A stretch of DNA of 64,000 nt, from positions 32,001 through 96,000 of the IMG/VR virus record IMGVR_UViG_3300045988_105285; one strand, written 5' to 3'. The translations under genes were made by a program, and so were the position numbers. Position 1 is the first letter of the stretch. Every line of letters begins with the position of its first letter. The DNA comes from a virus. This document shows positions 2,453 to 32,345 of the stretch, piece by piece. The notes under the pieces were generated by a model that searched no databases, was not told where the DNA came from, and worked only from the letters and a program-made list of their open reading frames with translations.

Positions 2453-3277
2453 GCTTGCAAACATATCTCCTTGACTAGATGGCTTGTAACCGATGATTTC
2501 CAACACCTCCCCAAACTTGTTGTCATACCACTTTGGAATGGTTTGTCCAGGCACATCCTTGTAGATGTCATTCAAAGCATACTCCAATCCTTTCTCTGTG
2601 ACGGAATAGTACTTGTGAACCTTGCCGTGCGCACCCTTTCGGGTCTTCTCTTCCAATAAGCCAGCAGCCAATGCCAGCTTATTGAACTTGATGGCTGATA
2701 ACTCAACACCACGTTCTTTCAATAATTCACTGACTGCGTGCGAAGCACCATTCGGAGCGTGGACGTAATCGGGAACCGGAACACCATAAGGCTCTGCTAT
2801 CTGACTCACCAACTGCAAGCGTGCGGCATCACTATATCGCAACGAGTCCATTACCCAATTAGCAACCGTCAACTTGTCTTGCAAGAAACTTTGCTGAGGC
2901 TTCATTTGCTCGGCTTGCACCTGCTCACGATGCTTAATTTCCAACTCCTCCCAACGCAAAACCAACTTCGCTCTTGCCTCATCATTAAACTTGGTGGCAA
3001 TGTAAAGACTCTCACGTTTGGTAAGGGAATAGCAAGGTCTAGTCTCTCCCTTTTGGTCTTGGTAATTAACGAGCTTAAAACCTAGCCCGTTAACCTTTAT
3101 CCACGCAGCCTCCATCTTACGAATAGACTGCATAACATTCTTATGCAACTTATTTGTCATAGTTGCAATTTCCAACGAGGTGATTCTTTCTTCTCCATCA
3201 CCTGTCATACCAGATTTCACAATACCCGATGGGAACACTGGCGGATTCACCATCATTCGGTTTACATTTTCTGTCAT
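2438..3277 (-). CDS. phage regulatory protein / antirepressor (Rha-like N-terminus, KilAC/ANT-like C-terminus)
   Basis: N-terminus ITSLEIATMTNKLHKNVMQSIRKME...TRPCYSLTKRESLYIATKF is Rha-like. C-terminus SELLKERGVELSAIKFNKLALAAGLLE...YSVTEKGLEY is ANT-like. Confidence 0.7.
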   Translation of the reverse strand: MTENVNRMMVNPPVFPSGIVKSGMTGDGEERITSLEIATMTNKLHKNVMQSIRKMEAAWIKVNGLGFKLVNYQDQKGETRPCYSLTKRESLYIATKFNDEARAKLVLRWEELEIKHREQVQAEQMKPQQSFLQDKLTVANWVMDSLRYSDAARLQLVSQIAEPYGVPVPDYVHAPNGASHAVSELLKERGVELSAIKFNKLALAAGLLEEKTRKGAHGKVHKYYSVTEKGLEYALNDIYKDVPGQTIPKWYDNKFGEVLEIIGYKPSSQGDMFASGETH

Positions 3278-3321
3278 AGTAACTCCAAATTTAATTTGTT
3301 AATAATTATATTTGGCTGTGG

Positions 3322-3370
3322 TGGAAACGAAAAGCCCCATCCGCTAAAGTCACGAGTGCGGACAGGGCTT
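3322..3370 (-). terminator. leader terminator/attenuator (paralogous to 15372..15423)
   Basis: Minus RNA AAGCCC-TGT-CCGC-ACTCGTGACTTTA-GCGG-ATG-GGGCTT followed by TTCGTTTCC. It lies between promoter 3513..3520 and the ATG at 3277. Confidence 0.5.
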
Positions 3371-3512
3371 AGCCACTTGCCCACTAAAGTAGAGAGATGA
3401 GCTTGTGGCAATTCTCCACGCTTGGAGAAAGTGAAATATCTAACAAATTTTAATAGTTTCAATATCCTTATTAGCCGTGCTCTCTACTTCACAACCTTGT
3501 TATTTTCGGCTG

Positions 3513-3520
3513 CAAAGTTA
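3513..3520 (-). promoter_or_regulatory. -7 box (TAACTTTG) for the antirepressor transcript
   Basis: Plus strand caaagtta is the reverse complement of TAnnTTTG. Confidence 0.5.
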
Positions 3521-3698
3521 ATATAATTTTTTCTAACTTGCAAACGCTTTAGTGTTTTATTCAAAACGTTAACGTTTGTTTTGCTTTGGAGGACTTCTGT
3601 CTTCACCAGCACGACCAATTCTTATGGCACTTTTCTGCACATTACTTCTTCTTTCCATTGCTCACGGAATTTAATAGTTAAACTTCAAAGATAATGTG

Positions 3699-3721
3699 CA
3701 GTTGCTCGGGTGTGCCTCACC
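3699..3721 (-). promoter_or_regulatory. conserved leader motif copy 4
   Basis: Minus-strand RNA reads GGTGAGGCACACC-CGAGCAACTG. Confidence 0.5.
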
Positions 3722-3731
3722 TTATATATTG

Positions 3732-4031
3732 TTACGCTACCATTAATAGCATTTCTTTTGATTGCATCTGAATCCATTGGCAAGCATCCTTTCGGAAAAA
3801 GATGTCAGAATCGAACCGCTTGCCATCCACGATAATGTGACTACAATTGCATTCGAACTTATGGTTTCGGGTCAATGGTATCAAAAGGTATGTATCACCC
3901 TCTTTCTTGTCGTACACAAGCGTCAAATCCGTGCCGATAACCTGTGATACCACCTTGTGCTCATCTGAGCTTAAAACACCAATCTTGCCATCATGCTCAA
4001 CATAAAGAGCATCCATCAAATTCTTATCCAT
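3732..4031 (-). CDS. hypothetical protein, member of a 3-copy paralog family
   Basis: The ORF track starts at 4103, but leader motif 5 lies inside that extension, so the likely start is MDKNLMDALYVEH at 4031. It shares YLL(I/V)PLT(R/K)NH.F....VDG..(F/I).S.IFFRKD with 18194..18502, and the LVPLTK.H.F...VDGE.I.S core with 48335..48679. Confidence 0.6.
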   Translation of the reverse strand: MDKNLMDALYVEHDGKIGVLSSDEHKVVSQVIGTDLTLVYDKKEGDTYLLIPLTRNHKFECNCSHIIVDGKRFDSDIFFRKDACQWIQMQSKEMLLMVA

Positions 4032-5192: not shown

Positions 5193-5231
5193 GTTTTTCA
5201 TAATAAGTTTGGCTGTTTGCGAAAATATTTG

Positions 5232-13124: not shown

Positions 13125-13529
13125 TCAAATCACGACAGCCTGTAATTCTTTTGAAATTCCATGTAAGCAATCAAGAATTTGCTGCTTACGTTTTTTGCTA
13201 GGCTCATGGATTCCCATTGCATACTGACGCATCAGAGAAGCATTAATGCCAGCTTTCTTTGCGACACCATTTATATTCAGATATGAAAAATAATCGAAGA
13301 AAGAACCTATATCATACCGGAACTCAAACACCAATTCAGGCATTTGTTTTCCCTCTTCTTCAAGAAGCTCTTTAATCTCTTCCTTTGCTACAAAAATATC
13401 ATCCATCGCTTGTTTTGCAGAGTTGCCAAATCCGACTAGATGGAAGTCTGGAAATTTATCCACCATATAGCAAGAAAAATTCTTTTCTTCTTTACACTTT
13501 TCTACTTGTATAATTACCTTTGTTGCCAT
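13125..13529 (-). CDS. hicB: HicB-family antitoxin
   Basis: N-terminal HicB/UPF0150-like fold pattern. C-terminal HTH (NINGVAKKAGINASLMRQYAMGIHEPS). It sits immediately downstream of hicA. Confidence 0.75.
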   Translation of the reverse strand: MATKVIIQVEKCKEEKNFSCYMVDKFPDFHLVGFGNSAKQAMDDIFVAKEEIKELLEEEGKQMPELVFEFRYDIGSFFDYFSYLNINGVAKKAGINASLMRQYAMGIHEPSKKRKQQILDCLHGISKELQAVVI

Positions 13530-13606: not shown

Positions 13607-13795
13607 TTAAAGCCCAAGCAATCTTTCAAGAATACTGTCGTAAGTCTTTCGAGAAACTTCACGACTGCCGTGCCGTGGCACTGGACATTTAAGTTTTGTT
13701 GTTGGACTAAACCAAATGTCGTGATTACCACCATGCCGAACCACATAGCAACCTGCTTGGGTCAGCTTTCTCACTAATTGACTAGTCTTCATCAT
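13607..13795 (-). CDS. hicA: HicA-family mRNA interferase toxin
   Basis: 62 aa with LVRKLTQAGCYVVRHGGNHDIW...CPVPRHGSREVSRKTYDSIL, matching the HicA pattern (G.H...... VP.H...E....T...IL). Confidence 0.8.
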   Translation of the reverse strand: MMKTSQLVRKLTQAGCYVVRHGGNHDIWFSPTTKLKCPVPRHGSREVSRKTYDSILERLLGL

Positions 13796-13904: not shown

Positions 13905-13920
13905 ATTAACCACAATTAAC

Positions 13921-13949
13921 AAAAAAAGAGCCACCCTAAAGGATGGCTC
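13921..13949 (-). terminator. intrinsic terminator after ORF 14043..14513
   Basis: Minus RNA GAGCCATCC-TTTA-GGGTGGCTC followed by TTTTTTT. Confidence 0.7.
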
Positions 13950-13951
13950 AC

Positions 13952-14042
13952 TTTACTTTACTATACTAAACAGTTCTATACTGGGCTTCGCTGCACAACA
14001 CTATACTGCGCTGTACTGGACAACACTTAACTAAACTGCCCT
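13952..14042 (-). repeat. degenerate short repeats with an AGTATAG / AGTGTTGT core
   Basis: Minus strand has CAGTACAG, CAGTATAG (x2), TAGTATAG and AGTGTTGT(C/G)CAG (x2). Confidence 0.5.
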
Positions 14043-14513
14043 TTATTTAAAATTAGCAAATACATCACGAACCTTTGCAAGTTTCACCAATGTATCGTAA
14101 TACTTAGATTGCTCTTCCATAGGCAAAGGTCGAACATTATTTATGATGTCAGAACCTTGTTTCAACGCCTTCTTAATATCACCCATCATTTGTTCATAGC
14201 CATAATTGGCTTGCTTGTTACTAGGAACTATTTTATAGCCTTTACCCCAATCATTACGAAGACAACATTGCTTATTTTTCAACAAGTCCTCACGCAATTT
14301 ATCAACCATTTCCATATATGTGAATTGCTGTAATTGGATAGCTTCTATATAAGCATCAACATTCTTATCGTAGTTCTCAAAAGACAACTTAGGCAACCCA
14401 AACTTCTCTTTGAGCCACTTATGAGAAATAAGTTGGTCTTCGTCAAAGTTAGCAATCAACTCTTCCTCAAACTTACCCAAAACTTCTCTTGTTAGTTCTT
14501 TTACACTTTCCAT
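14043..14513 (-). CDS. hypothetical protein (156 aa), flanked on both sides by repeat arrays
   Basis: The ORF track start at 14552 is a TTG. The better start is MESVKEL at 14513, preceded by AAAGGAG. Confidence 0.6.
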   Translation of the reverse strand: MESVKELTREVLGKFEEELIANFDEDQLISHKWLKEKFGLPKLSFENYDKNVDAYIEAIQLQQFTYMEMVDKLREDLLKNKQCCLRNDWGKGYKIVPSNKQANYGYEQMMGDIKKALKQGSDIINNVRPLPMEEQSKYYDTLVKLAKVRDVFANFK

Positions 14514-14541
14514 TTTTATTCTCCTTTTATTAAACTTTTTG

Positions 14542-14584
14542 TTCTCTGCCAAGGAATCGAACCTTGATGAATACCATACAGAGA
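14542..14584 (-). ncRNA. tRNA-like minihelix 1 (acceptor stem + T-arm only, 43 nt)
   Basis: TCTCTGT-AT-GGTATTCAT-CAAGG-TTCGATT-CCTTG-GCAGAGA-A. The acceptor stem is 7 bp and the T-loop is canonical. There is no D arm or anticodon arm. Confidence 0.5.
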
Positions 14585-14687
14585 TACCCTTTACTACACT
14601 AAGCTATACCAGTCTGCACTTAACTATACTAGACTTCACTTTGCCCTACAGAACTTCACTTTGCAACACCGTACTTTAAATATCTAG
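14585..14687 (-). repeat. array of roughly 20-nt degenerate tandem repeats between the two minihelices
   Basis: Minus-strand units: AGTGAAGTTCTGTAGGGCAA / AGTGAAGTCTAGTATAGTTA / AGTGCAGACTGGTATAGCTT / AGTGTAGTAAAGGGTA. Confidence 0.55.
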
Positions 14688-14730
14688 CTCCCCACAGAAG
14701 AATCGAACTTCCGCTAGCACCATGTGGGGA
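14688..14730 (-). ncRNA. tRNA-like minihelix 2 (acceptor stem + T-arm only, 43 nt)
   Basis: TCCCCAC-AT-GGTGCTAGC-GGAAG-TTCGATT-CTTCT-GTGGGGA-G. Same architecture and linker length as minihelix 1. Confidence 0.5.
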
Positions 14731-14739
14731 AAACCAATA

Positions 14740-15312
14740 TTATTTTATCACTTTCGCCTCAAACTTACCATACATTGCTCGGTATGTGCCTAAATGGTAT
14801 CTAAGACCAGCAACCTCGAACAACTTAACAATTTGGTCTCGGTCTAATTGACTTTCATCATACCAACAAGTGCATTCTGTACTCCACTCTGGGAATATCG
14901 CACGAGTAGCAAGAACCTTTGCGCCTCGAATACCAACGACACGACAATCTACATAAATACCAAGCTCATAAAGTTGCTCAGGAGTTTTGTCCGCATCCTT
15001 GAACTTCAACAAGCCATCATCCATAACACCAAAAGAACGCTCAACCTTTGCACCGAGTCGAATCTCTTTGGCAGCACATTTAACGGCTTGCATGATGTGC
15101 GAACTAGGAATGTAGTATTCACCCTTTGTGTTCAGATACAAGGATGCCAAGAACCTCAATCTACATATCTCCAATTGGTCTTCTTCCGTCTTTCGTCTCT
15201 TGCTAGTCAAAGAGGAAATCGCTTTTGCGTAATCATCAAAAGGAGAAACTGTTCTCGGATTATTCAACATCAATGGACTAACACCAACCAACTTAAAACT
15301 AATTGTCTTCAT
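14740..15312 (-). CDS. hypothetical protein (190 aa)
   Basis: Clean ORF with an ATG start (MKTISFKLVGVSPLMLNNPR...). I could not assign a family. Confidence 0.65.
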   Translation of the reverse strand: MKTISFKLVGVSPLMLNNPRTVSPFDDYAKAISSLTSKRRKTEEDQLEICRLRFLASLYLNTKGEYYIPSSHIMQAVKCAAKEIRLGAKVERSFGVMDDGLLKFKDADKTPEQLYELGIYVDCRVVGIRGAKVLATRAIFPEWSTECTCWYDESQLDRDQIVKLFEVAGLRYHLGTYRAMYGKFEAKVIK

Positions 15313-31497: not shown

Positions 31498-32345
31498 CAG
31501 CTTGCTTTCTTTGATGTTGTTCTCTCCAAAGGAAAGTCACTCTTCATAAAGTCATTAATCCCTATGTAAGTCCGCTGCAAATCCTTCTCATCGCCTTTTA
31601 AGTCTTCCGTTGCATTAATAGCAGCCTCATTTAATGTCTGTTCGTCAAAGACACCTTTTCTCACCTTGTCGAAATAAGAAAGAATTTCTTTGGTCATCAA
31701 ATGGTCTGCCAGTCTCTCGAAATCCTTATCCATCACTAACGCCATGAAGTCATAGGAGTTTTCAAAAGCAAGTATTGGGGCAAAATCCTTGAACGCTTGC
31801 ATTAAGTTAACGTGCAATTCTTCAAACAGCTTACGGATGATATTCTCATAAGTGCCCAAACAAAGGTTAGTGAGATTATAAAGGATGATTGCATTCGCAT
31901 AAACTCCCGATTTTTCACCAATTCCTAAGTTCTGTAACCTCACCGCGATCTTATCTCGCAACTTATACAAGTCTCCACTAATCTTGTCATAGAACGTCAT
32001 TGCGAATTCGTTATTAAAATCTGCATTAGGAACATAAGCGTCATAATACTTAACCACCTTGCGAAGATTCTTCTTGCAGTCCACCCACCTCTTCTTAACT
32101 TCAAACCTAACGCATTTCTTCTTCAGAATACTCTTTTCGATTTTCTGAATGAAACACTCTGCCAATATCATTTCGACATAGACATACTGCTGTAGATAGG
32201 CTCTGGTAACAACCATAACCTTATTTACTTCGGTTTCGGACATTTCATGCGGAACACTGATGATTGTCTTCTTGCCACCGACATCTAACAGAACTCTTCT
32301 GAAACAATTAACACTAGACATGATGTTTTCTGTTTGAATATTCAA
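31497..32345 (-). CDS. hypothetical protein (282 aa)
   Basis: Long clean ORF. No motif recognised. Confidence 0.6.
   Translation of the reverse strand: MNIQTENIMSSVNCFRRVLLDVGGKKTIISVPHEMSETEVNKVMVVTRAYLQQYVYVEMILAECFIQKIEKSILKKKCVRFEVKKRWVDCKKNLRKVVKYYDAYVPNADFNNEFAMTFYDKISGDLYKLRDKIAVRLQNLGIGEKSGVYANAIILYNLTNLCLGTYENIIRKLFEELHVNLMQAFKDFAPILAFENSYDFMALVMDKDFERLADHLMTKEILSYFDKVRKGVFDEQTLNEAAINATEDLKGDEKDLQRTYIGINDFMKSDFPLERTTSKKAS

Follow-up and report, generated by a model that had tools for sequence, protein, structure and literature searches.

tRNA-like minihelices flanking a guide-RNA tract in a phage VIPR locus

Introduction

VIPR, a CRISPR-like, RNA-guided DNA silencer, was described in 2026 in two preprints (bioRxiv 10.64898/2026.04.26.720920, 10.64898/2026.04.26.720927), and here we report two tRNA-like minihelices, designated A and B, which flank a guide tract in a VIPR locus of a virus. 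The DNA analyzed comprises 64,000 nucleotides (nt), positions 32,001 to 96,000 of IMG/VR record IMGVR_UViG_3300045988_105285; this whole stretch is called the window, and positions are those of the window unless another locus is named. According to the preprints, Vipr is a minimal RAMP homologue of ~20 kDa which polymerises with one protomer per 5-nt repeat, and its guide RNA (vrRNA) has alternating GGY and NN segments and an invariable 3' tail of ~40 nt, which is a pseudoknot in SUSP1. They also name NNNGG, YNNNG, and NNNNG as alternative repeats, present vrRNA arrays that are staggered or interspersed with hammerhead ribozymes (fig. S19), report an accessory gene, vap (families vap1-6), which accompanies vipr, and find that the reading of targets skips one base, which falls at the codon wobble position. 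The excision of vrRNAs from transcripts is addressed in neither preprint; the word "tRNA" is absent from both, and tRNA-like elements are mentioned in neither. In the literature that we searched, vrRNA is not mentioned outside these two preprints.

Minihelices composed of an acceptor stem and a T-arm are substrates of RNase P, RNase Z, and the CCA-adding enzyme, all of which measure a distance of 12 base pairs (bp) from the tRNA elbow, and an encoded CCA blocks RNase Z as an anti-determinant. In mascRNA (at the MALAT1 3' end) and in the MHV68 tRNA-miRNA units, a tRNA-like structure makes the ends of a neighboring non-coding RNA via RNase P and RNase Z. The t-elements of plant mitochondria are non-decoding structures of acceptor stem and T-arm, whose cleavage by RNase P and RNase Z creates mRNA 3' and 5' ends (PMC1920247), and in Haloferax a t-element-flanked CRISPR RNA (crRNA) has been made (PMC4326828). 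We searched the literature for minihelices and tRNA-like elements in phages and met no description of the class presented here.

Two minihelices in the window

Both elements are encoded on the minus strand. Minihelix A (14688..14730) reads TCCCCAC-AT-GGTGCTAGC-GGAAG-TTCGATT-CTTCT-GTGGGGA-G and minihelix B (14542..14584) reads TCTCTGT-AT-GGTATTCAT-CAAGG-TTCGATT-CCTTG-GCAGAGA-A; a preliminary description of the window had listed these two 43-nt sequences, and they are present exactly as it gave them. Each comprises a 12-bp helix of the acceptor/T-arm type (7 + 5 bp), an 11-nt linker starting with AUGGU, and one unpaired 3' base. In A, the 7-bp closing stem, the AUGGU bulge, the 5-bp T-stem, and the UUCGAUU loop are completed by a discriminator G and a trailer CUA (14685..14687), and in B the discriminator is A and the trailer CAA. 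Element A lies 9 nt past the stop codon of the open reading frame (ORF) 14740..15312 and B lies 28 nt upstream of the ATG at 14513, and on these positions, as on the structure, the preliminary description was right.

A strict scan requiring 7/7 closing pairs, 5/5 T-stem pairs, a TTCRANN loop, and a linker of 9-13 nt gave 2 matches in the window, while 1000 first-order Markov resamplings gave a mean of 0.015 and none with at least 2. A covariance model built from 35 unrelated phage copies (R1) found only A and B in the window (53.1 and 57.4 bits, respectively; E ~1e-15), the next best match having 12 bits. Single-sequence folding was only moderately better than that of shuffled sequences (z = -2.05 for A and -2.33 for B), and the minimum-free-energy (MFE) fold of B is the proposed structure. 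Both minihelices are kept almost unchanged in 21/21 close relatives.

ARAGORN, which had been proposed as a check in the preliminary description, found 0 tRNA and 0 tmRNA genes over the window, and Rfam gave nothing there at gathering thresholds, its tRNA model having a partial match of 15.1 bits at element B (cut-off 29). No cloverleaf can be drawn, as only 11 nt lie between the acceptor stem and the T-stem and both D-arm and anticodon arm are absent. A megablast search of the region against known phages gave two short unannotated matches only.

The surrounding VIPR locus

The ORF 14740..15312 (minus strand, 190 amino acids, aa) is vipr, the gene of the RAMP-like guide-coating protein. Its product matches PDB entry 36pp_D ("SUSP1 Vipr protein") over residues 1-188 (phmmer, E = 5.5e-20), and a profile of 21 homologues matches 36pp over the full length with E = 8.3e-40, this being the sole match to a solved structure; it also matches phrog_4652 (function unknown). 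Between the minihelices lies vrRNA1 (14585..14687, minus strand, 103 nt), composed of a 13-nt leader (14675..14687) and 18 G-U-N-N-A pentamers (14585..14674), the last of which is directly adjoined by B with a 0-nt gap. Over 10 distinct tracts, the pentamer positions hold G in 81%, U in 84%, N, N, and A in 71%, which gives AGU/NN repeats and fits the "YNNNG" alternative named in the VIPR preprint. Among 22 near-identical phages, whose Vipr proteins are 93-98% identical, the tract between the minihelices has 10 distinct forms, is 75-111 nt long, and differs at the NN positions, and a period-5 detector found no tract of the vrRNA1 type in shuffled sequence.

The ATG at 14513 begins a vap-like accessory gene (14043..14513, minus strand, 156 aa), which matches phrog_5926, has no Pfam match, and is syntenic in every related Vipr locus; it is 151-156 aa long across related loci, with 35-39% identity to the equivalents in L141-L147 (L numbers denote the loci compared). 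Right after its stop codon begins vrRNA2 (13951..14042, minus strand), found by the period-5 detector and having ~18 Y-N-N-A-G pentamers, and the 3' hairpin of vrRNA2 is supplied by an intrinsic terminator (13928..13949, or 13918..13949 when taken more widely, minus strand; 9-bp stem GAGCCATCC/GGGTGGCTC followed by UUUUUUU; folding z -3.8), which is the only strong one in the unit. The unit order is vipr, minihelix A, vrRNA1, minihelix B, the vap-like gene, vrRNA2, and terminator; both minihelices are co-directional with the neighboring ORFs, and no terminator lies in between.

Judged by its sequence, this locus is a VIPR system, because it combines Vipr homology, a hypervariable AGU/NN tract, and a conserved, vap-like gene after the array, as in the published VIPR properties. 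The preliminary description had recognised neither the vipr gene nor the guide tract vrRNA1, and the thing that the minihelices would punctuate was not seen. A reading of the spacer as a TRAP-type NAG-triplet binding array or protein sponge was dropped on the identification of Vipr. The host probably belongs to Bacteroidales, since the nearest Vipr homologues come from Bacteroidales assemblies.

Under the 1-nt-skip rule, vrRNA2 matches positions 5214..5263 of L231, in the tape-measure gene of a sister or rival phage, at 28/34 bases, and the skipped base is the codon wobble position (peptide TVVKVIGSAAVAVGTYK); the best of the vrRNA2 shuffles (n = 150) reached 25/34 and the tape-measure gene of the own phage (11577..11626) 23/34. 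Exact searches of IMG/VR gave 0 matches, both for the 28-base 1-nt-skip pattern of vrRNA2 and for 1-nt-skip half-patterns of vrRNA1, and the local matches of vrRNA1 variants from six relatives were no better than those of shuffles.

Other features of the region were also recorded. Directly downstream of the VIPR terminator lies a HicA toxin gene (13607..13795, minus strand; Pfam PF07927, E = 1.3e-12), followed by a gene of 134 aa (13125..13529, minus strand) in the usual position of the HicB antitoxin and with no Pfam match. Within 14515..14541, the vap start is preceded by a Shine-Dalgarno-type AAAGGAG in the window and a few relatives (alignment A2, columns 345-385), and most relatives have an A/T-rich leader without a Shine-Dalgarno sequence before it. 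The close relative L139 has an extra tract of ~100 nt (3571-3678) between the vipr stop codon and minihelix A, and element A would therefore be the tail of a guide that has been lost in the phage of the window.

Minihelices in other VIPR loci

Vipr loci at 54-61% identity (L141, L143, L144, and L147) have tracts and minihelices in alternation between vipr and vap, with up to five minihelices per array and no ORFs between them. Two sets of 41 Vipr loci, one taken from genome assemblies of bacteria and archaea and the other from viral contigs, were scanned with R1, which gave matches in 13 and 18 loci, respectively, all on the vipr strand, all within ~1 kb of vipr, and clustered at the array. 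The hosts, according to the assembly records, are Bacteroidales (including Alistipes and Dysgonomonas) and actinomycetes (Gordonia, Nonomuraea, Piscicoccus, and Haloechinothrix); the scan found none in proteobacterial Vipr loci nor in the SUSP1-type felixounavirus HY02. Cultured phages carrying minihelices are Mycobacterium phage LittleE, in which the class occurs together with canonical GGCNN tracts, and Gordonia phages Trine, whose array has the order minihelix-tract-minihelix-tract-minihelix, and MakoManhole; the cultured phage prophiBWHA-1 also carries them.

In an alignment of 57 distinct copies linked to VIPR, which was fitted to the covariance model and leans towards the structure, paired cells make up 94.5%, compared with 52.8% after shuffling and 42-53% when the structure is slid, and double-sided changes number 280 vs 79. 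Stem sequences vary freely between copies, even inside one array, and the comparison of relatives for covariation that the preliminary description had suggested gives compensatory stem changes in Vipr loci down to 27-36% protein identity. The G53-C61 pair is kept in 56/57 copies, and the loop is TTCGATT or TTCGACT in 48/57. The trailer after the discriminator is C-(A/U)-A, and an encoded CCA is present in 2/57 and 0/35 copies. At the junction, tract and minihelix abut directly, which is conserved within each clade.

Several arrays deserve separate mention. In Trine (L273), the array (3079-3353) begins 6 nt before annotated gene 40 (3085-3888) and fills its first ~270 nt, this gene spanning three minihelices and two GGCNN tracts, and in LittleE (L272) gp35, on the opposite strand, covers the array at 2250-2429 upstream of vipr; both annotations are probably wrong, at least partly. 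At the last separator position of L147 (3749-3783; also in L148 and L149) stands a bulge-less 13-bp hairpin with a perfect T-loop. In a sister Vipr clade (46-51% identity), the tracts are split by a short, conserved, linear motif, AGCAAAGUUAYAUCCCAAC, with no minihelix (L257 3400-3700), and this array is probably of the type called "staggered" in the preprint.

No Rfam ribozyme family reached the gathering score in the window, none appeared at E<=10 in 14480..14800, and an Rfam scan of 20 Vipr loci, made with the sister clades in view, found no hammerhead and no ribozyme separators. Long Rfam tRNA matches occur near vipr in L257 (1848-1966), L245 (2027-2129), L254 (1645-1782), and L246 (639-756); they cover the full model, extend to 103-138 nt through inserts, and are located on the vipr strand, a few hundred nt upstream of that gene. 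The anticodon-loop inserts in the two aligned cases are 47 nt (L257) and 41 nt (L245), and ARAGORN calls none of these matches. The long Rfam tRNA matches of L245-L264 are tRNA-like genes and were rejected as guide tracts, their anticodon-loop inserts of 41-47 nt being without pentamers, and the tRNAs of L177 were rejected as separators, being ordinary tRNA genes.

The minihelix class outside VIPR

Scanning IMG/VR with a loose DNA pattern, ATGGT-N10-GTTCGATTC, which holds no closing-stem information, gave 119 loci. Pairing of the closing stem in these loci is bimodal, with 7/7 pairs in 14 and 6/7 in 23, and with 5, 4, 3, 2, and 1 pairs in 4, 6, 32, 25, and 14 loci, respectively; at least 6/7 pairs are therefore found in 37/119 loci vs ~2 estimated by chance. 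Since pairing was the criterion by which the sequences of our first alignment (A1) were chosen, pair counts from it are circular, and the unbiased evidence is this bimodal distribution, to which the VIPR-linked set based on the covariance model adds.

Within the pattern loci, R1 detected ~100 copies, and a single phage often carries several of them on one strand. The conserved quantity is the total helix of 12-13 bp (12 bp in 36/95 copies and 13 bp in 24/95), and the bulge is placed variably at 5, 6, or 7 bp from the helix base. The 7-bp acceptor stem of the preliminary description is thus right for A and B but not for the family, in which the seventh pair is often mismatched. The G-C pair closing the T-loop, the UUCGAYU loop, the GG of the bulge, and the C-(A/U)-A trailer are also conserved.

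A Vipr homologue or a period-5 tract was found in 1/119 pattern loci, namely L048, which is on the same contig as the Vipr locus L225; ~75 loci carry the class without Vipr and without a tract, and around the other ~90 copies G is enriched with period 5 to the same degree as at random positions. The presence of the class without VIPR suggests a factor of the host and not one specific to Vipr. The non-VIPR copies sit between co-directional genes, and ~52/95 start -6 to +16 nt from the stop codon of the upstream ORF (counted when co-directional and at least 70 aa), the start codon of the next gene being 20-50 nt past these copies. BLAST among the first 33 minihelix loci gave no common neighboring protein. 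In L006 (2537-2934), L024 (3413-4075), L032 (701-1282), L109 (5 copies), and L115 (9881-11983, 4 copies), which have neither Vipr nor tract, the class brackets small genes and the stop codon often overlaps the first stem base; L006 and L115 have another short hairpin after every copy.

Comparison with described systems

The locus shares with the published VIPR systems a Vipr homologue, a pentamer guide with variable NN, its location on a phage, and a tract that is followed by a conserved structure of ~40 nt, and it has a putative accessory gene next to it and a candidate target in a rival phage. It differs in the repeat, which is AGU/NN here and GGY/NN in the published systems, and in having a tRNA-like minihelix where a pseudoknot, a hammerhead ribozyme, or a staggered junction has been published. 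As in the hammerhead-interspersed vrRNA arrays, a compact structured RNA module, thought to define ends, stands between guide tracts, but the ribozyme cuts itself whereas the minihelix would need host RNase P or RNase Z. Since a short linear tail (in one clade), a pseudoknot (in SUSP1), and hammerheads occur at the same position, this position appears to be that of a boundary or tail module.

Like the t-elements, the minihelices are tRNA-like structures of acceptor stem and T-arm which have no decoding role and are embedded in transcripts, but t-elements are organellar, originate from recognisable tRNA genes, and are without the AUGGU bulge or a guide RNA (PMC1920247). In engineered tRNA-guide arrays and in the Haloferax crRNA, a guide is flanked on both sides by tRNA-like modules and released by RNase P and RNase Z with no Cas6-type nuclease. 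Trine and the window (A-tract-B) match this layout; the engineered arrays are man-made and use a full tRNA, whereas the module here is natural and minimised to 43 nt. The mascRNA and MHV68 elements are eukaryotic or herpesviral full-cloverleaf mimics of unrelated sequence. The tRNA-like domain of tmRNA likewise has acceptor stem and T-arm, a stem-less D-loop analogue with a GG contacting the T-loop, and no anticodon arm, but tmRNA has G3:U70, alanine charging, and an mRNA-like domain, and the stems here are without identity elements.

Proposed function and alternatives

Because vrRNA1 lies between two protein-coding genes, it must be cut from a polycistronic transcript. We favor, with moderate confidence and from comparative analysis, the explanation that the minihelices, as mimics of the tRNA top half, would attract RNase P and/or RNase Z of the host, and that these enzymes delimit vrRNA1. 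Given the established knowledge on minihelix substrates, RNase P, RNase Z, and the CCA-adding enzyme would read the generic tRNA features that are conserved here, and the invariant GG of the bulge probably stands in for G18-G19 of the D-loop, completing a tRNA-like elbow. Host tRNA end-processing enzymes recruited in this manner would free vrRNA1 from the vipr-vap transcript, A setting its 5' boundary and B its 3' boundary. Cleavage past the discriminator, where CCA may be added, would be due to RNase Z or to 3' trimming, and RNase P would, or might in addition, cleave each minihelix on its 5' side. That very few copies encode CCA is compatible with the predicted cleavage by RNase Z. The suggestion of tRNA-like punctuation or processing signals giving small stable RNAs, made in the preliminary description, fits all of these findings, with the cleavage itself only inferred.

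In one form of this model, the minihelices are excised separators cut on both sides, as the flanked layouts in Trine and the window and the hammerhead separators elsewhere would suggest. In another, the minihelix stays on the vrRNA, and B may remain attached to vrRNA1 as a structured, nuclease-resistant 3' tail; this form is suggested by the direct junction conserved within clades, the size match with the published tail, and the terminator hairpin of vrRNA2 in the equivalent position.

Several points weigh against the recruitment of tRNA-processing enzymes. The separator and tail forms conflict with each other, because cleavage by RNase P would remove the tail. The MFE fold of A gives the closing stem and not its weak T-stem. 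The ends are atypical for tRNA, the 7:66 pair being mismatched in 28/57 VIPR-linked copies and nucleotide 1 being U or A in 46/57. Minihelices are also not obligatory, as vrRNA2 has none and ends in a terminator, and the last tract of several arrays runs directly into the vap start codon. Finally, a target of vrRNA1 was not found in the searches described above.

The minihelix may instead be a handle or cap specific to Vipr or Vap, functionally equivalent to the 3' pseudoknot of SUSP1 and capping or phasing the filament, with the likeness to tRNA serving only folding stability or nuclease resistance and the ends being made by other RNases. The structured 3' element of SUSP1 does cap the RNA, with the adjoining protomers best ordered; each tract passes directly into a minihelix at a clade-conserved junction, and the 42-43 nt of the minihelix are close to the published tail of ~40 nt. 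We nevertheless consider such a handle unlikely, since the class occurs in the ~75 loci that have neither Vipr nor tract, and its stem sequences are free to vary even inside one array. Moreover, there is no tract for A to cap, nor for the elements that open the arrays of Trine and MakoManhole, and in L147 the bulge-less T-loop hairpin takes the place of the minihelix.

It is more doubtful still that the elements are generic stabilisers or punctuation of phage mRNA which stand in the VIPR locus by chance. In that case they would have no specific role in guide maturation and would shield the vipr message at its 3' end and the vap message at its 5' end, or set how strongly the two are expressed relative to each other. 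The non-VIPR copies near an upstream stop codon (~52/95), with the next start codon 20-50 nt on, agree with this explanation, but the arrays of Vipr loci hold as many as 5 elements in alternation with tracts and without intervening ORFs, and every match in these loci clusters at the array.

Two further explanations are highly improbable. The preliminary description had offered decayed phage tRNA genes, and leftovers of an integration site in a tRNA gene would be similar; the canonical T-arm and the weak partial Rfam tRNA match of 15 bits at B point that way. However, phages that are only very distantly related share the truncated form (linker of 10-11 nt), with compensatory changes between them, and an att remnant keeps the 3' half only, not both acceptor strands. 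The preliminary description had named full-length tRNAs at this position in relatives as the sign of simple decay, and we found the truncated form in 21/21 close relatives and a full-length tRNA in 0/21; we have therefore rejected decay. A DNA-level element, namely origin iterons flanked by inverted repeats, was suggested by a spacer that looked at first like short direct repeats between two hairpins, and it is hardly credible in view of the 5-nt period, the RNA-type G-U pairs in the stems, the orientation strictly on the vipr strand, a protein partner homologous to known RNA-binding RAMP proteins, and the lack of a GC-skew switch in the region.

Significance

VIPR itself and the principle of tRNA-like processing are already known; a natural guide-RNA array punctuated by minimised tRNA mimics, and a wider class of 43-nt modules in phage operons, were not found described. 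Beyond VIPR, it is a serious possibility, falling a little short of an even chance, that many phage lineages carry a minimised 43-nt module of the tRNA top half (12-bp helix, T-loop, elbow-mimicking GG bulge, and C-N-A trailer) which hijacks host RNase P and RNase Z for general transcript punctuation, the maturation of VIPR guides being one specialised use. The presence of the same module after stop codons in many phages that are unrelated suggests that phage operons commonly use tRNA-type punctuation and that this has escaped annotation, the module being missed by tRNA finders and by Rfam alike. If this is true, it would be the counterpart, in bacterial viruses, of mitochondrial tRNA punctuation.

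For VIPR, the tRNA-like separators give a testable route, through host RNase P and RNase Z, for vrRNA maturation, and this route would explain how a two-gene system manages without a dedicated processing nuclease. Cultured phages LittleE, Trine, and MakoManhole share the architecture and are tractable systems, and a module of 43 nt that is processed by the cell may find use in guide-RNA multiplexing. If the proposed processing is true, the arrays would be natural tRNA-guide-tRNA arrays, in which an RNA-guided system older than CRISPR uses the tRNA enzymes of its host and not a Cas6-like nuclease.

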